From contig JAZDKB010000027.1 in NCBI GenBank assembly GCA_043803405.1, positions 1-64,000 of the forward strand: a stretch of 64,000 nucleotides of DNA. Reading direction: 5' to 3'. The stretch comes from Spirochaetota bacterium (GTDB lineage Bacteria > Spirochaetota > UBA4802 > JAFGDQ01). The notes under the pieces are model-generated. The model did not search any database. It was given only the letters and a program-made list of their open reading frames with translations, and was not told the DNA's origin. The translations under genes were made by a program, and so were the position numbers. Shown here piece by piece: positions 50,360-61,657 of the stretch (positions within the stretch are counted from its first letter, which is position 1; each line of letters opens with the position of its first letter).

Positions 50360-51160
50360 CTAAGATATCAGATGCTTTGATAGCTTGTAAAAAGCCCGTT
50401 TTAAAGATGGCAGTCCGAACGCGAATCTTGACAGAACGCCGTATATCTCCTTCCTGTTTTCCGCTCTCTTTGCCTTTATGGGAGCCGGATTTTTTTCGAG
50501 GCCGAATTTGTCAGGGCTGTCTTTCAGAATAGTAATGACATGCAAGCCGCCGAATTCTTCAAGGCCGTATATGCTTGCGTTCGGGAATTCGTTTTTGACT
50601 GCCTTAAGCCTTTTCTTTGCGTTTGCCGCAATCTTAAGCCTGTAATCGAATGTCAGCGCGTCGGACGGGCAAACGCTTACGCATGCAGGCACATCCCTTG
50701 TTTTTTCAGTGCAAGCGTGGCATTTATATGCTTTGTTTTTATTAATAAATCTGCCGGTTCCGTATTCGTTGTAATCCCTGTCCGCAACATGGGGCACTCC
50801 GTAAATGCACGCTTTTTCGCATTCCCTGCAGCCTATGCATTTCTCCCTGTCGATTACAACCCAGTAGTCGTTTTTATAAACCGCATCAGCCGGGCATACT
50901 GTCCGGCAGTTCGGCACTTCGCAGTGAAAACATTTTTTATGCATCATCTGAAAAACGATTCGGTCAGAGGCCGGAATTTCCATTTTTTGAATTATTACAT
51001 GATTAAAAGTAATGGCGGATAAGGATTCCGGGCATGTGTATTCTTTCGGAAAAGACGGTTTTTCTTCAGCAGGCAGATTATTCCATTGCTTGCACGCGGC
51101 CTGGCAGGCCTTGCATCCTGTGCATTTTGTCGTGTCGACAAGAAAAGCTTTGTCAGCCAT
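50360..51160 (-). CDS. 4x[4Fe-4S] electron-transfer subunit (FdnH/FdhB-like)
   Basis: CTGCKACQAAC, CFHCEVPNCRTVCP, CIGCRECEKAC, CHAC...PACVSVCP; starts 1 nt after the large-subunit stop; no obvious C-terminal TM helix. Confidence 0.9.
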   Translation of the reverse strand: MADKAFLVDTTKCTGCKACQAACKQWNNLPAEEKPSFPKEYTCPESLSAITFNHVIIQKMEIPASDRIVFQMMHKKCFHCEVPNCRTVCPADAVYKNDYWVVIDREKCIGCRECEKACIYGVPHVADRDYNEYGTGRFINKNKAYKCHACTEKTRDVPACVSVCPSDALTFDYRLKIAANAKKRLKAVKNEFPNASIYGLEEFGGLHVITILKDSPDKFGLEKNPAPIKAKRAENRKEIYGVLSRFAFGLPSLKRAFYKLSKHLIS

Positions 51161-51161
51161 A

Positions 51162-54113
51162 TTATGCCTCCCTGCCTATGTTTACCAGAAACGCTTTGCA
51201 CTCCGGCGCACCGGAGTTTGCATCTCCGGTGTCGTGCAGCAGATTAGTATAATTATTTGCAATTGTGGCGCTGGCGGAGTTCATTATTATGCCGACCATC
51301 TCTATCTTCCTTCCGTCAATAACAATCGGCCGCATTCTTTCCGTTACAAGGCAATACGCGGTCAGTTTTCCCCTTTGGGACCTGACATATATTTTATCGC
51401 CGTTTTTAATCCCCCTGGAATCCGCAAGCGATTTGCTTATTTCACAGTAAACATCAGGGGCAAGTTCGGAAAGCCAGGTGAGATTTTTAGTCATAAGACC
51501 GGCCTGCCATCCTTCGGCCATGTTAAATGCACTCGCGATATACGGATAAGCAGCATTGTTCCCCATGTTTCGTCTAAGTAAAGCGCTTACAGGGCTGGAG
51601 CCTGCTGTGTTAAGAATGTTGTAGGCAGGGCTTTCCATGGGTTCATAGTGCTCTGGCAGGGGCCCGTCCGCCATATCCATTGCGAACATTTTCCCAACAC
51701 CTTCATAAAGCATAATGAACGGATTTTTATCCGCAGGCCCGGACTGCTCCTCCCCGTTGACTGCATCGCCTTCCCACTCGTCATCCCATTCCATCAGCCA
51801 TTTTTCTTTGTTCCACGGCTTGCCCGACCTGTTAACGCCTGCCCTGTTATAAAGTATCCTGCAGTTGCCCGGCCAGCTCCATGCCCATTTAGGATACAGG
51901 CCAAGCTTGTTCGGCGCGTCTTTCATTTTTCTTCTTTCCATCATATTGCCCGAATCCGTAAAGCTGCCGCTATAAAGCCAGTTGCCTGCTGCAGTTGATC
52001 CGTCTTCCTTAAGTTTTGTGAAGCCGGGTACGGACTTTCTTGTATTAATTTCATAACCGTTTATTTCAATCGCGGTTTTTTTCGGATCAGGATTGGCTTC
52101 TTCACCTGCATAATCCCAGTTAGCGCGCAGAATGCTGTCCGGGAAAGCCGCGTTTTTATCTTCAGCATAAAACATTTTTATCTCTTTAAATATCTTATCA
52201 TATATCCATAAATCCGGCTTCGCATGTCCCGGAGGATTTACGCATTTTAATGACCACTGAACCCATCTTCCTGCATTTGTCAGGCTTCCTGTTTTCTCCG
52301 GCAAAATCGCGGAAGGCAGCAAAAACACTTCGGTTTTTATTCTCTCGGGCTTTGCGCCCTGCCTTTTCCAGAACGCGGCGCTTTCCGATTCAAATACATC
52401 GGTTGCAACCATCCATTCCAGATTCTCCATGGAACCGGCTTTCCCTCCCGCATCCTGCGAGTTCATTAATGGGTTCGCGCCTGCGAGCAAAAGCCCGCTT
52501 ATTTTGCCTTTGCGCATGTCGTCAAACATAGCATTCCTGCTGACAGGCCTGCCTGTTTTCGGCAGCCAGTGAAAACAATAATCATTTTCTTTTGTAGCGG
52601 TTTCGCCGTAAAAGGATTTCAGCAGATTTATTATTTGGATATTTCTGGTGCTTAAAATGTTTACGCTCATGGGATTATTCGAAACCGGCGTCGTGTCTTT
52701 CAGGTACGATTCAAGCGTAGAATGTTCATCTGCCTTTGGCGCAGTAAGATACCCGGGGAGAAAATCGGGCTGGAGCCCGTGGTCGTCCGCGCCCTGGCTG
52801 TTTGCTCCGTTCCGCAACGCATACAGCCCGCCGCCCGCAATGCCTATATTGCCCATCAGCATCTGGAGAATTGCGTATGCCCTCACATTCTGCGCACCGA
52901 CAGTATGCTGCGTGGAACCTGAAGAGAACACAATGGAACCGGCTTTTTCGTTTTTATATGTCGAAGTATATGTTTCCGCTATCTTTAAAAAAGTTTCTGC
53001 AGGGCAGCCTGTAACGCGTGAAACAACATCCGGTGTGTATCTGGAAAAATGAGCATTGAGTATCTGGAATACAGTATACTGATTTTTCAGGGTTTTATCC
53101 ATTCTTGGAACGCCTTTTCTGTCTTTCTCATAATCCCACGCTTCATTATTGTATTTCCCTGCGTTAAAGCCGTTAAAATATCCGTTTTGAAAATGATACT
53201 GCGGATTAACCATGAAGGCTGCATTTGTATATTCCAGTAAATATTCCTTGTTTATTCTGTTGTTTTTAAGGGCGTAGTTTATTATGCCCCCTATGAAGGC
53301 TATATCGGTTCCGGGACGAAGAGGAGCGTGCATATCTGCAAAGGACGATGTTCTTGTGCAGCGTGGATCGGCGAGTATGATCCTCCCGCCTTTTTCCTTC
53401 GCCTTTAACATAAAGCGCACTGAAACAGGATGAGACTCGGCAGGGTTGCTCCCGATAATAAGGATAACGTCCGAGTGCTGAACATCGATCCAGTGATTTG
53501 TCATTGCGCCGTAACCGAACGTGTTCGCTAGCGCTGTGTCTGCAGCAGAATGAGATAAATCGGATTCGTTCCGGACATTTGCAATGCCCAGAACACGGGA
53601 CATTTTTGAGAGCAGATAATATTCTTCATTGTTTAAATATGACCCGGCGAAAACAGCCATCCCGTCTGTTCTGTTAACCGTGTTCTTGCCTTCGTATTCA
53701 ACGAAAGTTTTATCCCTTGTTTTTTTAATGTTTTCCGCAATTTTTTTTATTGCTGCTTCCCATGAAATCTCCTTCCATTCCGGAGCAAAAGGAGCCCTGT
53801 GCAATACTTTAGTGAGCCTTTTTTCGTTTACGCTTAGCTGGAAAGCGGCGCTGCCTTTTGCGCACAGCCTGCCATTATTGATCGGGTGGCTTTCATCGCC
53901 TTCAATATTTATTATTTTATTGTTTTTTACTGAAACCTTGATTCCGCATCCCATGCTGCAGAATGGACAAATGCTGTTTAAATTGCTTGTTCCTTTAAGC
54001 TTGTCGATCGCCAGTTTGCAGCCGCTTAACAAAGATAATGATATGCTGCTGAAAAAAGCAGCGGCTGATGCCGTGCCGGATAATTTCAGAAAATTTCTTC
54101 TGGTAATTTTCAT
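51162..54113 (-). CDS. Formate dehydrogenase-N alpha-like molybdopterin oxidoreductase, atypical (Ser at metal-ligand site)
   Basis: TRRNFLK Tat motif, CPFCSMGC...CAKG, FGYGAMTNHW, GSNPAESHP, RPGTDIAF, TQH, GPLPEHYEP match FdnG/FdhA, but the ligand segment reads NESDLSH instead of xQARx(U/C)H. Confidence 0.88.
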   Translation of the reverse strand: MKITRRNFLKLSGTASAAAFFSSISLSLLSGCKLAIDKLKGTSNLNSICPFCSMGCGIKVSVKNNKIINIEGDESHPINNGRLCAKGSAAFQLSVNEKRLTKVLHRAPFAPEWKEISWEAAIKKIAENIKKTRDKTFVEYEGKNTVNRTDGMAVFAGSYLNNEEYYLLSKMSRVLGIANVRNESDLSHSAADTALANTFGYGAMTNHWIDVQHSDVILIIGSNPAESHPVSVRFMLKAKEKGGRIILADPRCTRTSSFADMHAPLRPGTDIAFIGGIINYALKNNRINKEYLLEYTNAAFMVNPQYHFQNGYFNGFNAGKYNNEAWDYEKDRKGVPRMDKTLKNQYTVFQILNAHFSRYTPDVVSRVTGCPAETFLKIAETYTSTYKNEKAGSIVFSSGSTQHTVGAQNVRAYAILQMLMGNIGIAGGGLYALRNGANSQGADDHGLQPDFLPGYLTAPKADEHSTLESYLKDTTPVSNNPMSVNILSTRNIQIINLLKSFYGETATKENDYCFHWLPKTGRPVSRNAMFDDMRKGKISGLLLAGANPLMNSQDAGGKAGSMENLEWMVATDVFESESAAFWKRQGAKPERIKTEVFLLPSAILPEKTGSLTNAGRWVQWSLKCVNPPGHAKPDLWIYDKIFKEIKMFYAEDKNAAFPDSILRANWDYAGEEANPDPKKTAIEINGYEINTRKSVPGFTKLKEDGSTAAGNWLYSGSFTDSGNMMERRKMKDAPNKLGLYPKWAWSWPGNCRILYNRAGVNRSGKPWNKEKWLMEWDDEWEGDAVNGEEQSGPADKNPFIMLYEGVGKMFAMDMADGPLPEHYEPMESPAYNILNTAGSSPVSALLRRNMGNNAAYPYIASAFNMAEGWQAGLMTKNLTWLSELAPDVYCEISKSLADSRGIKNGDKIYVRSQRGKLTAYCLVTERMRPIVIDGRKIEMVGIIMNSASATIANNYTNLLHDTGDANSGAPECKAFLVNIGREA

Positions 54114-54360: not shown

Positions 54361-54645
54361 ATGAAAATATTTAATTCATTTTTGATAATTTTAATTTCAG
54401 CTGTCTTTTTAGTTTCGTGTCAGCCCGGCAATAAGACTATGACACCTGAAGATTTTTTAAAGATTGAGAACGAGTATCTTAATTCTGATTTAAAGCCCGA
54501 ATCGAAGGAAGCTGCTGCAAAGAAATACGGATATACGCTGAAATCATTTACCGAGTTTGAAGAGAAAGTTGACAAAGATCCGGCTCTGAAGAAAAAAGTA
54601 GGCGAAGTTAGATTAAATCTGCAAAAGAAAGACGGAAAAAAATAA
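54361..54645 (+). CDS. Small hypothetical lipoprotein
   Basis: AGGAGG RBS; signal peptide ending FLVSC; basic hydrophilic mature part. Confidence 0.8.
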   Translation: MKIFNSFLIILISAVFLVSCQPGNKTMTPEDFLKIENEYLNSDLKPESKEAAAKKYGYTLKSFTEFEEKVDKDPALKKKVGEVRLNLQKKDGKK

Positions 54646-55883: not shown

Positions 55884-57437
55884 TCAGTAAATGATCTCCC
55901 ACCATGCTATCTGGCTGAGATAATAATAATTATCATCTGATAACCAGTTTCCCATTGAAGCGCCCAGAATATCCATGTCACCATCGTTGTCTATGTCTGC
56001 CGCATCAAGGGAATACGCGGAGTGAAAATGCATATTGATTATATGCTCAGTCCATGAGTTGCCGGCTCCGTTTGTGTTCTCCCACCAAATTACCGTATCG
56101 CTGTTGCTTGCGGCTGTTGCAATGTCAATGTCGCCGTCGCCGTCTATATCTTTCGCAATCACAGTACGCCCGCCGTCAAGACTTTCATTATTCACAATGT
56201 GTTTTCCCCAGGAGGACGAGTTTGTATTTTCCCACCAGCATACATTACTGTTTTCGTATATTCCAAGAGAACTGTTCCATGTTCCGTACGATATGCCGAT
56301 AATATCAAAATCACCGTCACCGTCAATGTCTGCTGAATAAACTGCTTCCGCTGTGCTGAAGGTGCCGTCAATTGTATGCTCAGTAAAGTTGTCCTTCCAG
56401 TCGACAATCTCCCCTTTTCTGTTTTCCAGCATGGAGATTTTGCCTTTATTGTTTTCTGTATAGATTATATCGAAGTCCCCGTCTGCGTCAGGATCCGCGA
56501 TACACAGCCGCGTTATTCCCTTAAAATCAGCTTCAATGTTATCTGTGGTCAGTTTATGCTTTGTCCATGCACTCGCATTGCCTGCTGTGTTTTCCCACCA
56601 GCTGATCTCGCTGTTTTGTCCGGAATTATAATTGTCTTCGTAGGACGAGCCTGCAATGTCAAGGTCGCCGTCACCATCCATATCTGCTGCCTGAACAGAA
56701 TGCGCGCCTGCAAAAGATGCATCGACAGCATGAGGAGTCCATACATCTTTCCACGAACCGCCGTCTTCCCTGTGGTTTTCCCACCAGTAAATTCCCATGG
56801 AGTAAGAGTACGGACCTGCGCTTATAAAGTCAATATCGCCGTCACCGTCAATGTCCGCCGGTATTACGGACCAGAAACAAAAAGCGTTTTCTATTATTTT
56901 ATGCTCAATCCAAGATGTGCCGGTATTTTCAAACCAGATTATTTCTCCCTCCCAGTATGAAGCAGCTATAATGTCCATATTACCGTCACCATCAACATCT
57001 GCTGCAGAAACAGATTTAGCTCCGTCAAAATCGTTTTTCACTATGCTCATTACAGGGTATCCGACCTTTACTTCAATATAGTTCGACATTACTTTCTCGT
57101 CCGAAACCAGCCAGCGGCTTTCCCAAACCTTAAGCTTAACCGAATAAGTTCCTGCAGTATTATATGTGCAGACCGGGTTCTGTTCAGTAGAGTCAATTAT
57201 GCCGTCATTATCGAAATCCCATTCCCACGCCGCAATATCTCCGAAAGAGTGATCCGTAAACCCGACAGTCAGCCGCGCGTTGCCCTCAGTGCCCGAAGCT
57301 GTGAAGTCCGCGGCTACAGCAGGCGAAACAAAGTTATCGCTATCCGGATCACTAGAATTGTCCCGCTCCATGTCAAAATAGCAGGAAGCATTTAAAAGCA
57401 ACAGGGGAATTAGAATTATTTTTTTTAATTTTTTCAT
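55884..57437 (-). CDS. Lipoprotein with PKD domain and FG-GAP/VCBS-type repeats (predicted beta-propeller)
   Basis: LLNASC lipobox; WEWDFDNDG...QNP...YSVKLKV PKD; seven DxDGDGDxDI...WWEN-type repeats. Confidence 0.88.
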   Translation of the reverse strand: MKKLKKIILIPLLLLNASCYFDMERDNSSDPDSDNFVSPAVAADFTASGTEGNARLTVGFTDHSFGDIAAWEWDFDNDGIIDSTEQNPVCTYNTAGTYSVKLKVWESRWLVSDEKVMSNYIEVKVGYPVMSIVKNDFDGAKSVSAADVDGDGNMDIIAASYWEGEIIWFENTGTSWIEHKIIENAFCFWSVIPADIDGDGDIDFISAGPYSYSMGIYWWENHREDGGSWKDVWTPHAVDASFAGAHSVQAADMDGDGDLDIAGSSYEDNYNSGQNSEISWWENTAGNASAWTKHKLTTDNIEADFKGITRLCIADPDADGDFDIIYTENNKGKISMLENRKGEIVDWKDNFTEHTIDGTFSTAEAVYSADIDGDGDFDIIGISYGTWNSSLGIYENSNVCWWENTNSSSWGKHIVNNESLDGGRTVIAKDIDGDGDIDIATAASNSDTVIWWENTNGAGNSWTEHIINMHFHSAYSLDAADIDNDGDMDILGASMGNWLSDDNYYYLSQIAWWEIIY

Positions 57438-57447
57438 ATTGTCTTTT

Positions 57448-57517
57448 GCCCCTCTACCGGACTACTGACGTTCAATACATATAGAAAAACTTCCGGGAGA
57501 GGGATAGGGGTGAGGGC
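57448..57517. repeat. BoxC-like intergenic palindromic repeat
   Basis: CCCTCTACCGGA (57450-57461) pairs with TCCGGGAGAGGG (57492-57503, one mismatch), followed by GGGGTGAGGGC. Confidence 0.55.
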
Positions 57518-57591
57518 ATTTTTTTAATTATTTTAATCAATTCACCCAAATTTACATTAACTATCTATGTATTATATATTCCTTTTAACTC

Positions 57592-59184
57592 CTAATCGAT
57601 ATCGAAAACAGACCACCACGCAAGCGAGCTGCCTGCATTTGTAAGATAATAACCGTTCGCTGCACCTGCCAAATCTATGTAGCTGTCGTCGTTTATGTCT
57701 GCTGCGAATACTGATGAAGCAAACGTAAATTCAGCATCGATAGCATGCTCTTCCCAGCTGTTCCACATACCGCCAATATTTTCCCACCATGCGATCTTGT
57801 CGCCAAGCCTGGACGCCCCCGCAATGTCCGGGTCGCCGTCGCCGTCAATATCAGCAATAAAGACTGACTGTGCTCCGAAAAAGTCTTCATCAATAGTGTG
57901 CCTTGTCCAGCCTATGCCTCCGCCGTCATTCAGCCAGATTACTATCTTGTCGTCTTCCCAGAAAGCGGATACAATATCCATGTCCCCGTCGCCGTCCATG
58001 TCAGCGATGCGGATATCCCTTGGCCCCCTCAGATAATCCGGTCCTGTGTCTGGCATGATCGTGTTTTCCGACCAGGTGCCTCCGCTTCCGTCATTATTTC
58101 TGAACCAGAGTATTTCACTATGCTCGTGCGTGGCTGTTGAATTTTCAATGTAACCATATACACTAGCTACGATGTCCTTATGCCCGTCGTTGTCAATATC
58201 CGCAATGCGGACGTCAGCCATGCGGCACAGGCTGGTTTTTATGCTATGTTCAATCCATGAAGTCCCTGTACCACCGTCGTTTTCCCACCAGCGTATTTCG
58301 CTGTTCTCGTATATGCCCGGCCCGCTGTTCCATGTTCCGTTTGAAGCGCCTGCAATGTCGATATCTCCATCGCCGTCAATATCGCACGCGTAAACCGAAC
58401 AGGCGCGGATAAAATTAGAAGCTACTTCGTGCTTTGTCCACGATTTGCCGTCCCCGCCCGCATCATCGCGCGGTGTCCCATCGTTCTCCCACCATACGAT
58501 TTCATCTTTAGAATATAGCGATGCAACTATATCCATGAAGCCGTCATGGTTTACATCTGCTGCATGTATCGAGATTGTGAAAAGAGGATGAGTCTCATCG
58601 GCTACTGCAATGATGTGTTCGATCCACTGACTACCGCTGTCAGTATTTTCCCACCACGAAAGTTTGTTATTCAAATAATTATTGTTATATTCGTTATCCC
58701 TCGAATAACCGCATATAAAATCTATATCTCCGTCATTATCAATATCAGCCGGGTACAGCGTATAGGGGCCTTCGTTGCCCTCAGATATTGTCCGTCTTTC
58801 CGGTGTACCGAAGGACACAGTTATCTGCTCTGTCTTTTCATCAGTGTAATGTCCAATAGATGTAACTTTTAATTTCACATTATATTTCCCGGCAGACGTG
58901 AATATATAGGAAGGATTTTGTTCCGTAGAATCTGTGATGCCGTCATTGTTGAAATCCCATTCACAGGATTCAATACTGCCGATGGAATTATTTTCAAAAT
59001 GCACGGTCATGGGCACATTGCCGCTTTTGGAGGAAGGAATAAAGGATGCGCTTAAAGCAGGCGGGGTAAAGTTATCTGCATCCGGGTCATTTGAATTATC
59101 CCTCGGCATTTCAAAATAGCAGGATGAAACATTCAGGAGCAGACAGATAAAAATGAATTTAAATATTAATTTAAATCCGTTCAT
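57592..59184 (-). CDS. Paralogous lipoprotein with PKD domain and FG-GAP/VCBS-type repeats
   Basis: MNGFKLIF...LNVSSC lipobox from ATG 59184, PKD domain, seven DxDxDGxxDI-type repeats; the track's 34-aa extension runs through an intergenic repeat. Confidence 0.88.
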   Translation of the reverse strand: MNGFKLIFKFIFICLLLNVSSCYFEMPRDNSNDPDADNFTPPALSASFIPSSKSGNVPMTVHFENNSIGSIESCEWDFNNDGITDSTEQNPSYIFTSAGKYNVKLKVTSIGHYTDEKTEQITVSFGTPERRTISEGNEGPYTLYPADIDNDGDIDFICGYSRDNEYNNNYLNNKLSWWENTDSGSQWIEHIIAVADETHPLFTISIHAADVNHDGFMDIVASLYSKDEIVWWENDGTPRDDAGGDGKSWTKHEVASNFIRACSVYACDIDGDGDIDIAGASNGTWNSGPGIYENSEIRWWENDGGTGTSWIEHSIKTSLCRMADVRIADIDNDGHKDIVASVYGYIENSTATHEHSEILWFRNNDGSGGTWSENTIMPDTGPDYLRGPRDIRIADMDGDGDMDIVSAFWEDDKIVIWLNDGGGIGWTRHTIDEDFFGAQSVFIADIDGDGDPDIAGASRLGDKIAWWENIGGMWNSWEEHAIDAEFTFASSVFAADINDDSYIDLAGAANGYYLTNAGSSLAWWSVFDID

Positions 59185-59209
59185 ATAAATTACATCCGTG
59201 TTTTTGTTT

Positions 59210-59272
59210 TGGAACCACGAATACACACAAATAAAAATTAAAAAAATATATTCGTATTCATTCGTGGTTCCA
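59210..59272. repeat. Intergenic inverted repeat (CCACGAAT/ATTCGTGG type)
   Basis: TGGAACCACGAAT (59210-59222) / ATTCGTGGTTCCA (59260-59272), perfect 13-bp arms with imperfect inner extension. Confidence 0.7.
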
Positions 59273-59318
59273 TTTTTTAAAATCAAGTCAATTTATAAAG
59301 CCTGCCAAATTTTATATT

Positions 59319-60251
59319 TCAAAACTTCAGACTGACCCCCATACCCATAACAAGCTCCTGCCTGGGATAATTGATGTTGTATATCCGGATGCCTGCTTCC
59401 ACGCTGCCTGTGTTTTTAGTCGCGTCTTTAATGTTTCTAAAAACCGGTTTAGTAATAAACAGAACATCAATCCAGTTCGCAATGTAAACCAGGGAGCAAA
59501 GAACTGTCGCGCCCATGGCAAAATACCCGGCTCTTTTCGCACTCCTGTATTTTCTGTCGTATTCATCCGATCCGGCCTGCAGTTCCCCCAGGTCGCGGTA
59601 TTCTTCGCGTTTCTTTTTGTAATTGATGATTGAGCATATAGTTAATGCCCCGGTTGCAATAAATGAACTAAGAAATATCCAGCCCTTCTTTTCTTCTCCT
59701 GCATACAGCTGGCCGCATCCCGGTATAAAACTGACCGAATAATAAACCAGCGGCAGAACCGGCATTATGATCTCCTTATCCCCTTCAACTATCTTTCTTA
59801 TCAAATCCTTTGCAGTCAATTCTGCAGTCTTTATTACTTCGTCGTTATTTGCCGCTTTGCCTGTGGACGAGAACATCGATACGCTGCTTTTAATGTCTAT
59901 ATATCTTATTGTAATGACGATCGTTTGTTCAACGCTGTTAACTTCGCCGACTATAAGCTTTTCCGCATTCAGCATTTTGCCTATTTCAACAGCACAGGAC
60001 TGATCAGTGCATCCCGTCATCTGCAGCCCGTGCTCCTCAAGGATCGCTTTTATTCTGGTTCTTTCAACAACAGTGAAATTGCCTATGTTAACAAACTCGG
60101 ATCTGACTATATCCGTAACAGCATAAGATATGATATTGCTGACTCCGTTGGGATTCAGCTCCAGAACTGCAAGCGTAACAGATAAAGCCGGGGTTTTAAG
60201 CAACGTTATCAGGATAATTGCATAAAATATATGTATTCGCAGTTTGAACAC
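59319..60251 (-). CDS. Exported protein with CsgG/HfaB-like N-terminal domain and hydrophobic C-terminal domain
   Basis: Signal peptide; LAVLE...FTVVERTRIKAILEE...GCTDQSCAVEIGKMLNAEKLIVG; C-terminal IPGCGQLY with two hydrophobic helices; ends GVSLKF. Confidence 0.75.
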   Translation of the reverse strand: MFKLRIHIFYAIILITLLKTPALSVTLAVLELNPNGVSNIISYAVTDIVRSEFVNIGNFTVVERTRIKAILEEHGLQMTGCTDQSCAVEIGKMLNAEKLIVGEVNSVEQTIVITIRYIDIKSSVSMFSSTGKAANNDEVIKTAELTAKDLIRKIVEGDKEIIMPVLPLVYYSVSFIPGCGQLYAGEEKKGWIFLSSFIATGALTICSIINYKKKREEYRDLGELQAGSDEYDRKYRSAKRAGYFAMGATVLCSLVYIANWIDVLFITKPVFRNIKDATKNTGSVEAGIRIYNINYPRQELVMGMGVSLKF

Positions 60252-60419
60252 AGACAGCTCCGGTATTTTAATATTACTTTTTTGTTATTATCAGGGATAT
60301 ATATGAGATTTATATTTTAGAATGAGAAGTCTTGTTTCTATATGATAGGCATAATTGAATATTTTTATCTTTATCTATCAAAGATATAAAAGTATAAATT
60401 AAAGGCAAGTATTTTATGG

Positions 60420-61145
60420 TTACCAGATTTCTTTGCTGACGCCGATATTTTCTGCAGCAGTGTTTATTATTCCATTGATTTGATCTGCTTCTTTAAAAGT
60501 ATAATTCTTATCGAATAATATTTTGCCGGTTTCGGCATTCGCTATGCTGACTGATAATAAATATGTATTGCCTGCCCGGCTCAGCCTTCCGGTAAGAATT
60601 CTGTTCACGCTTTTATCAATGCCGTCTGTTTTGCGGAAAACGACTGCAGCCGGCATTTCGCCTTTAAGGCGAGAGTATAATTTATCCGTAATATCCGAAG
60701 CAAGCTTTTCATCTGTTTTATCCGACAAAATCTGCGTAATGCCCAGCCTGTTCATTAACAAAGGCACCTTTGTTCTCTGCTCTTTATACGCATCAACCGC
60801 GGGTATTTTAACGGATATTTTATTATCATTAATTAATGTTTTTGGATTATTAAAAATAATTATTCCTGCTGCAGTAAGAATCCCGGCTGCAATCAGGGCA
60901 GCAGAAATGAAAGAAAGGGTAATCTCCGCCTGCCTTGCAGTCAGATTTACCCCGATTTTTTTTGTAAAGAAATAGAATCTGAGAACAGATCCATAGAAAG
61001 CATTATATTCCCCGAAATTTTTCAGCACGTTTACAGTTGTTTTTCTTTTAAAGGATAAGATCTGTTTCTGTATATCCAGCGGAACAGGCTGCCTTAACTT
61101 AAAGCGCCCCAGTATCTTTTCCAGTTTAGCGATATTCCCGTTCAT
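60420..61145 (-). CDS. Putative anti-sigma factor: single TM plus CsgG/TolB-N-like extracytoplasmic domain
   Basis: ATGA overlap with the ECF sigma; one TM; C-terminal ...LASDITDKL...ILTGRLSRAGNTYLLSVSIANAETGKIL pattern. Confidence 0.6.
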   Translation of the reverse strand: MNGNIAKLEKILGRFKLRQPVPLDIQKQILSFKRKTTVNVLKNFGEYNAFYGSVLRFYFFTKKIGVNLTARQAEITLSFISAALIAAGILTAAGIIIFNNPKTLINDNKISVKIPAVDAYKEQRTKVPLLMNRLGITQILSDKTDEKLASDITDKLYSRLKGEMPAAVVFRKTDGIDKSVNRILTGRLSRAGNTYLLSVSIANAETGKILFDKNYTFKEADQINGIINTAAENIGVSKEIW

Positions 61146-61657
61146 AAGAGGTCCTCAATATGTTTTATGCCTTTTCTCGAGAACTGATCCATTATTTTCT
61201 GAACTATCAGACCATACTTATACTGGACCTGTCTCTTGCTAAGACCAAGCTGGGAACCGGCCTGGCTGTAGCTGAAATTATTTATGGCGATAAGATCGAA
61301 TAAAACCTTATCTTCTTCCGTGTCGAACGTATCTGTTGATTCTATTATTTCATTTATTATTATCCTCGCATCCCTGAACCCGTTTACAAACGTAAGACCC
61401 ACGTCTTTAAAAATATCGTCGATCTTTGCGGACTTATCCCTTGCCCTGTAATGATCGAATACCGCAAGCCGCAAAGCGCCATACAGCCATTTTCTGTGGT
61501 TTTCGATCTCGTCGAATTTTTCAAAAAACTTGATGAATACTTCCTGGCATACATCATACGCGTCGTCCACATTATTGACTTTAGTATAAACTGCGCTATA
61601 CACGAGCGGATAATAACTGTTTACAGCATCCGTGAAACTATTCTTTTTGTCAGCCAT
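61142..61657 (-). CDS. ECF-type RNA polymerase sigma factor
   Basis: 171 aa; DAYDVCQEVF, KWLY, DHYR (region 2); SYSQAGSQLGLSKRQV HTH (region 4). Confidence 0.85.
   Translation of the reverse strand: MADKKNSFTDAVNSYYPLVYSAVYTKVNNVDDAYDVCQEVFIKFFEKFDEIENHRKWLYGALRLAVFDHYRARDKSAKIDDIFKDVGLTFVNGFRDARIIINEIIESTDTFDTEEDKVLFDLIAINNFSYSQAGSQLGLSKRQVQYKYGLIVQKIMDQFSRKGIKHIEDLL

Follow-up and report, generated by a model that had tools for sequence, protein, structure and literature searches.

The alpha and beta subunits of formate dehydrogenase N (FDH-N) are a textbook pair. A relative of this enzyme, OmeA of Dehalococcoides mccartyi, is tightly bound to the four-cluster protein HupX, and its Mo cofactor is described as "not confirmed" (PMC6005880). 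For the organohalide-respiration complex of D. mccartyi, a quinone-free transfer of electrons from protein to protein has been proposed (PMC6005880, PMC6258894, PMC10772276). Another paper counts three losses of the cofactor, in FhcB, Nqo3 and ActB, none of them from FdhG, which it lists as ligated by selenocysteine (Sec) or Cys (PMC10100899). The locus considered here lies in a window of 64,000 nucleotides from a Spirochaetota bacterium (assembly GCA_043803405.1, contig JAZDKB010000027.1, positions 1 to 64,000), whose genome is referred to as G000. On the minus strand, at 51162..54113, a gene encodes an FdnG/FdhA-like alpha subunit of 983 residues (P0001, the window protein) that lacks the Sec or Cys ligand. 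Our preferred explanation, held with moderate confidence, is that this alpha subunit is cofactor-free and non-catalytic, and that it exports and anchors an electron wire of five [4Fe-4S] clusters.

The frame is open, and the assignment of the gene is based on its open reading frame (ORF), alignment, profile and model. The sequence-only reading made earlier on this DNA had placed a Ser at the Mo/W ligand position of an FdnG/FdhA-like scaffold, and alignment to Desulfovibrio vulgaris FdhA (Dv, the numbering used for comparison below) agrees: codon 187, read from 53555 to 53553 (53553..53555 on the minus strand), is TCT in the context VRNESDL-S-H, and S187 falls on selenocysteine U192 in a gap-free region. 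The presence of Ser at a Sec/Cys site is real. The neighbouring His and the Arg of the GGGxxALR motif, which had been reported as kept, correspond to each other in the two proteins (H188 to H193 and R434 to R441), and the Sec position 196 quoted for E. coli FdnG matches the UGA at fdnG codon 196 (PMC3636253). The same reading had allowed for another Cys at the ligand site; none lies close to it in this alignment. The structure prediction that it proposed gives an FDH-N fold, with a mean model confidence (pLDDT) of 91 from a 65-row alignment and a TM score of 0.92 to 1h0h (D. gigas), 1kqf (E. coli FdnGH) and 6sdr (D. vulgaris FdhAB); the window protein is 37–40% identical to these three proteins, and its best fold matches are all FdhG. 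With the FDH-N alpha profile TIGR01553, its score is 1042.6 (cut-off 814.2). Membership in a Ser-enzyme family was considered separately and rejected on the scores for dmsA_ynfE (139, cut-off 778), bisC_fam (57, cut-off 1018) and TorA (23, cut-off 909).

A canonical ligand, U or C, occupies this column in 83/83 canonical FDH-N sequences. Among 120 homologue matches, 83 have Cys, 18 have another residue (Ser in 11) and 19 lack the region, the last being probably gene calls cut at TGA. All eight full-length close homologues, at 65–69% identity, have Ser, and a partial ninth, P0007, has Ala. That the Ser is not a single sequencing error, as had been argued earlier, is borne out by its codons, since G001 and G002, two genomes of the same genus, carry TCG and TCC in place of the TCT of G000; sequencing error is thus ruled out. 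Families within the order are labelled f1, f3, f4 and so on; across the seven genomes of the window's own family, which include G000–G002, the ligand column reads S, S, S, H, G, Y and P, and the proteins with Tyr and Pro form the sister group of the Ser clade and share its other pocket changes. The Ser form was met once among 79 loci in a scan of genome contigs, and a metagenome scan for further DNA of the Ser clade returned canonical loci only (80/80, of which 72 had TGA and 8 Cys).

The ligand is one of many positions affected. When near-invariant columns were defined as those at least 95% conserved in the 83 canonical sequences, 264 were obtained, of which 46 are altered in the window protein, most of them near the cofactor and formate sites, against a median of 261 kept in canonical rows. 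Nine of the altered positions lie in a remodelled ligand loop (residues 181–193, 53535..53573). The eight full-length Ser proteins have lost 30/66 columns inside cofactor and active-site windows versus 12/198 outside, these windows having been drawn from motifs after the 264-column comparison. In the pocket, the changes relative to Dv are M405 to S398 (52920..52922), E443 to G436, R884 to N864 and H888 to G868, together with a conserved W-H replaced by M944-N945 (51279..51284); at the formate site they are T450 to D443 and H457 to D450. The segment R434–D450 (52764..52814) thus keeps its Arg and has lost E443, T450 and H457 of Dv. The domain IV cofactor loop, N864–Q870 (51504..51524), carries the changes at R884 and H888, and residues 867–869 within it are the sole internal segment of the model with pLDDT below 50. 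Dv R884, which we take, from motif spacing, to be a pterin-bridging residue, is replaced by or kept as N, R, H, K, S, R, N and S in the eight members of the Ser clade. PF01568 gives 33–53 bits with the eight Ser proteins and 55–73 with eight canonical ones.

Published work on the Dv enzyme gives these positions their meaning. Formate has been located at R441, T450, Q447, S194 and H457, with E443 and Q890 tied to MGD2 (PMC9820355), and the M405S change, of which S398 is the natural equivalent, by itself lowers the activity of DvFdhAB 8-fold and 18-fold (PMC11134731). In PMC10673323, a pterin-bridging role is given for His1092 of NarG only. The sequence-only reading had offered a different chemistry with a Ser ligand as one of two explanations; this is weak, since it had overlooked the pocket changes elsewhere and the column is variable. 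Ser187 has probably not become a new ligand to Mo/W, because the column elsewhere holds His, Gly, Tyr or Pro and because so many near-invariant positions have changed with it. The retention of His and Arg, to which the same reading had appealed, holds for the window protein and is incomplete among its close homologues in the Ser clade (His188 in 5/8, Arg434 in 7/8).

The iron–sulphur side of the protein has fared otherwise. The FS0 [4Fe-4S] motif recognized by PF04879 is present (C49, C52, C56 and C84; 53862..53969), and all four of its Cys are retained in 25/25 divergent alpha subunits examined, of which one, P0010, is still Cys-ligated. One base past the alpha stop begins the gene for an fdnH/HybA-like beta subunit (50360..51160, minus strand, 266 residues), which profiles and motifs show to have four [4Fe-4S] motifs. 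Sixteen beta and four alpha Fe-S cysteines are preserved in the window pair, and the four motifs are retained in the betas at 19/19 ligand-less loci. The beta subunit has no signal peptide and no transmembrane helix; its predicted amphipathic, basic C-terminal helix (50369..50410; hydrophobic moment 0.58–0.72, best 19-residue hydropathy 0.84) may have a function at the membrane. The alpha subunit begins with a twin-arginine signal whose end, LSG-C32, is lipobox-like (54018..54113), from which a lipoprotein exported by the twin-arginine translocation (Tat) system is predicted, the lipidation being putative. PF10518 falls below its cut-off on this protein in one scan and above it in another, and no protein of G000 matches a Tat signal better than the window protein, the same being true of its counterpart in 3/4 f3 genomes tested. 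The Cys32 column is kept in 18/18 ligand-less proteins among the 120 homologue matches; several f3 proteins have lost the lipobox Cys, which accords with an inner-membrane signal anchor more than with display at the outer surface. The alpha–beta unit includes no gene for a membrane subunit (FdnI) and no fdhE, and is followed by the convergent gene of a CDF transporter; neither fdhE, fdhD nor mobA adjoins the window gene, and several canonical loci have them.

The gene with this combination, in which the ligand and pocket residues are lost and the Tat signal and Fe-S cysteines retained, is under purifying selection. Its dN/dS is 0.10–0.15 with a dS of 1.6–2.3, a rough estimate since dS is near saturation. 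The ratio is 0.11–0.16 in four close f3 pairs and 0.03–0.15 in 13 canonical pairs; none of the ten ligand-less alpha pairs that could be measured exceeds 0.2, one further pair being saturated and unusable. A copy under relaxed selection among close homologues with Cys or Sec, which had been considered earlier, is contradicted by these values and by the Ser of the full-length homologues. Of the two explanations in the sequence-only reading, it is the non-catalytic, electron-wiring one that gains support, from the loss of the pocket, the kept Fe-S Cys and purifying selection.

Within G000, which is 94% complete, the window gene is the only FDH-N-type gene found, so that the word "paralogue" used for it earlier does not suit it; a paralogue accompanying a functional FDH-N is ruled out for this genome, no second such gene having been found. 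The genome has two cytoplasmic enzymes of the FdhF type, of which one contains an in-frame TGA and the other Cys (C4:208375-211068 and C39:44058-46754, near HdrA/MvhD-like genes, these labels being from a reading of the sequence), and also encodes a DmsA-like protein. The latter belongs to a DmsA/B/C-like set of three genes (G000:C35:30676-34674, minus strand), on whose catalytic subunit a twin-arginine signal was not found. Genes for tRNA-Sec, SelA, MoaC, two MoeA, two FdhD and TatC are present. Loss of the selenium supply was tried as a cause of the Ser and is ruled out by tRNA-Sec, SelA and the TGA-bearing FdhF; since the Sec and molybdenum cofactor (Moco) machinery is intact, the ligand change was not forced in this way. 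E. coli FDH-N and FDH-O require FdhE (PMC6258894), and FdhE was not found in G000 with either a spirochaete FdhE query or PF24859.

A survey of 61 genomes of the order extends this last point. A ligand-less copy occurs in 20/61 genomes, namely in 7/7 of the window's own family, 10/11 of f3 (the eleventh has only a fragment broken by Ns) and three of f4; the alpha frames are open in all 20, one being cut by a contig end. A canonical copy occurs in 29/61, of which 26 were read directly and three judged from a single in-frame TGA. FdhE is present in 29/29 genomes with a canonical copy and was not found, with the spirochaete query, in 15/20 with a ligand-less copy, including G000–G002; this query was used because Pfam FdhE_N, which matched 1/61 genomes, is blind to spirochaete FdhE. 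In G005, G009 and G015, the FdhE lies near another TGA-bearing FDH. The ten f3 genomes, 77–97% complete, have kept the alpha and beta genes, and MoaC, MoeA, SelA and FdhE were each found in 0/10, compared with 48, 47, 46 and 41 of all 61 genomes, respectively. TatC is present in 9/10, and in 5/5 f3 genomes tested the ligand-less alpha is the only PF00384 protein. In G026, a single contig, the pair, TatC, MoaC and SelA were all not found. For the most part, the f3 and f4 copies have the same neighbours as canonical f2 and f5 copies (AI-2E transporter, YraN-like and ribosomal-cluster genes), and the own-family copy sits in a neighbourhood different from all of these. G003 (L112, L230) has an FdnG-like protein with His at the ligand position and most other motifs intact, its operon still containing fdhE; the His protein may be either an early stage or the bearer of an unusual ligand.

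As to origins, the window lineage descends, on the evidence of sequence comparison, from the order's Sec-containing lipoprotein FDH. Among named canonical orthologues, the closest come from Spirochaetota metagenome-assembled genomes (MAGs) and are lipoprotein FDHs with Sec; the prefix of one of these, MVZN01, is listed under class UBA4802 (PMC13248872), in which G000 would probably be placed as well. In a broad-outgroup tree, the own-family proteins make up one clade within the spirochaete Sec-FDH clade; smaller trees joined the own-family and f3/f4 proteins, the small protein tree and the broad-outgroup tree both being FastTree trees with long branches. A single origin for all ligand-less rows was rejected (AU test, p 8e-6, 14 vs 18 rows, LG+G4). 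P0012 shows a separate Sec-to-Ser change, nested among canonical Sec enzymes. Among the best 150 cluster representatives, the region is missing in 70, 31 have Cys and 49 another residue, a few rows being poorly aligned and several belonging to the same order; ligand-less FdhG-like proteins are thus not rare. Ten were looked up, and those outside the order include P0262 (a Planctomycetota MAG) and the P0296 cluster (Adlercreutzia).

How might such a pair work? The number of clusters, the export and the anchoring are predicted from motifs. On our preferred explanation, the alpha subunit would fold round its single cluster without bis(pyranopterin guanine dinucleotide) (bis-PGD) and bind beta, which has no signal of its own and would be carried through Tat by alpha; the dimer would then be lipid-anchored outside the cytoplasmic membrane, with the C-terminal helix of beta resting on it. 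Electrons would move from protein to protein via the clusters, as proposed for OmeA/HupX. Ser187 would be a tolerated filler, a single base from TGA and from TGY, and formate metabolism would fall to the two cytoplasmic FdhF enzymes. A bolder version, which we consider rather unlikely, is that the order's periplasmic FDH has a catalysis-free second job as a stand-alone five-cluster conduit and that several lineages have kept only the wire. Transfer would then proceed between proteins without quinone, cytochrome or NrfD, for example from Rnf to an external or partner-cell acceptor; the costs of selenium, molybdenum and maturation would be dropped, and Tat might be kept chiefly for export of the wire.

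Several observations weigh against a cofactor-free wire. Electron transfer through the pair is a prediction from the conservation of cysteines. No partner tracking the alpha–beta pair was found: NrfD and the NiFe hydrogenase are each over cut-off in 0/5 genomes tested, futalosine menaquinone genes were found in 0/10 and cytochrome c assembly genes in 3/10 f3 genomes, and an electron-transfer-flavoprotein-linked membrane oxidoreductase gave matches of 23–29% identity only, in 4/10. The window protein retains K86, Q402, R434, N438, Q440, E867, Q870 and K973, and besides the Ser, invariant in the full-length clade members, N182, S184, Y201, D/E443 and N945 are fixed in the Ser clade. Moco synthesis is encoded in G000, so cofactor binding is possible there. 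G003 has fdhE in the operon and G004 an orthologous fdhE, both with ligand-less copies; these appear to be early stages and argue against an FdhE rule without exceptions. The assemblies surveyed are all incomplete. Lastly, the f3 proteins of the genomes in which Moco genes were not found are only 24–30% identical to the window protein, and the f3/f4 rows lie elsewhere in the broad-outgroup tree, on long branches apart from the window clade. The f3 proteins may represent a separate, parallel loss, and because their relation to the own family varies between trees, the Moco-free evidence may concern that loss.

Other searches for partners were made. Rnf is present in 5/5 genomes tested, yet also in G026, which has no pair. 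G000 has no NrfD, and no NiFe large subunit or reductive dehalogenase over cut-off; a match to the reductive-dehalogenase family over cut-off was seen in 1/5 tested genomes (G001:C42:30042-30815). Futalosine-route menaquinone genes were likewise not found in G016, G018, G021, G041 and G056, which have a canonical Sec FDH-N.

An alternative to the cofactor-free wire is a Ser-ligated Mo/W enzyme with a new chemistry, such as S- or N-oxide reduction, which arose from FDH-N in one genus and whose acidic funnel would take in a neutral or cationic substrate. The constancy of Ser187 in the full-length clade, through three codons, would suit such an enzyme, as would the acids gained in the funnel (E183, D185, D443 and D450), the Moco made by the host and the fact that DmsA, DorA, TorA and BisC are as a rule Ser-ligated (PMC10100899, Table 1). 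However, P0007 has Ala, and the sister pair has Tyr and Pro with the same pocket changes; the Arg and His of domain IV are lost and variable; FdhE was not found in G000; M405S alone lowers DvFdhAB activity 8- to 18-fold (PMC11134731); and the window protein groups with the FdhG branch, apart from the Ser enzymes. We regard this enzyme as distinctly unlikely. The residues newly fixed round the pocket in the Ser clade, and a nucleotide-binding surface that is partly retained, could also be read as a vacated acidic pocket that binds a pterin, a metal or a small ligand and tunes the Fe-S chain as a sensor. This has only a slim chance, since the neighbourhood comparison shows no signalling gene conserved next to the pair and the pocket residues vary among the other ligand-less lineages.

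It is unlikely, too, that the pair is cofactor-free with a mainly structural or envelope role, its clusters serving in folding and in proofreading by Tat instead of electron flow. The partner searches gave no consistent donor or acceptor, and in several f3 genomes neither futalosine menaquinone nor cytochrome c assembly genes were detected, which would agree with such a role, for which FhcB is a scaffold precedent (PMC10100899); the persistence of four beta clusters and FS0 at 24–30% identity nevertheless goes beyond the need of a scaffold. It is very improbable that the gene is a formate dehydrogenase gene in decay or that its Ser reflects a sequencing error: the branches are longer than those of canonical copies and dS is near saturation for the window pairs, but the frames remain open in 20/20 genomes (with the one contig-end cut), dN/dS is low in the ten measurable pairs, the losses cluster in the pocket with every Fe-S cysteine spared, and the Ser codons are synonymous.

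Around the locus, promoter and terminator scans gave results at chance level. A 94-residue lipoprotein-like ORF (54361-54645, plus strand) with no family over cut-off is divergent from the fdnG-like gene, and also adjoins it in G001 and G006. Further on, at 55884-61657 (minus strand), are genes for two proteins that have signal peptides and PKD plus FG-GAP repeats; upstream of them lie a sigma-like gene (a label from a reading of the sequence), a membrane-anchored ORF and a CsgG-like gene.

Compared with known systems, the window pair resembles periplasmic FDH-N/FdhAB in fold, Tat signal, FS0, four-cluster beta, gene order and a TIGR01553 score over cut-off, and differs in having no Sec/Cys ligand, altered pocket and formate residues, no FdnI and a lipobox-like anchor. 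With OmeA/HupX, it shares an FdhG-derived large subunit and a four-cluster partner, OmeA having been compared by description only. Unlike OmeA/HupX, it comes without OmeB/NrfD (0/5) or NiFe hydrogenase (0/5), with RdhA in 1/5, and its lineage nests in the Spirochaetota Sec-FDH clade, apart from other ligand-less rows. OmeA itself probably has Ser at its ligand site. ActB, Nqo3/NuoG, FhcB and QrcB are cofactor-less subunits of the MopB fold. The first three have lost Mo/W-bis-PGD and kept a wire or scaffold role (PMC10100899); theirs are ancient losses on other branches and in large complexes, whereas the window unit is of the FdhG branch, has two genes and is recent enough for intermediates. 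DmsA, DorA, TorA and BisC resemble the window protein in having Ser at the ligand position and form a separate clade. In kind, then, this is most likely an OmeA-like non-catalytic FDH-N, a kind known from OmeA, ActB, Nqo3 and FhcB. What distinguishes it is that it is the sole periplasmic FDH-N copy, that intermediate stages exist, that there is no membrane subunit and that relatives suggest independence of the cofactor. No published report of these spirochaete proteins was found in a search that did not cover subscription journals and in which OmeA was not a term.

Whether OmeA-like proteins need the Mo cofactor is stated as an open question in PMC6005880, and the ten f3 genomes that keep the pair with MoaC and MoeA undetected are a natural test of this need. 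The series from Sec to Ser to a fully eroded site shows a molybdoenzyme turning into a pseudoenzyme. An extracytoplasmic FDH domain has served to mark syntrophic fatty-acid oxidisers, among them those in class UBA4802 (PMC13248872, PMC7382037). Because ligand-less proteins pass the TIGR01553 cut-off (the window protein and 7/10 others tested), annotation would wrongly assign formate transfer to their hosts; a check of the ligand codon and of FdhE corrects this. If the wire does conduct, these uncultured anaerobes would have an electron route unknown until now.

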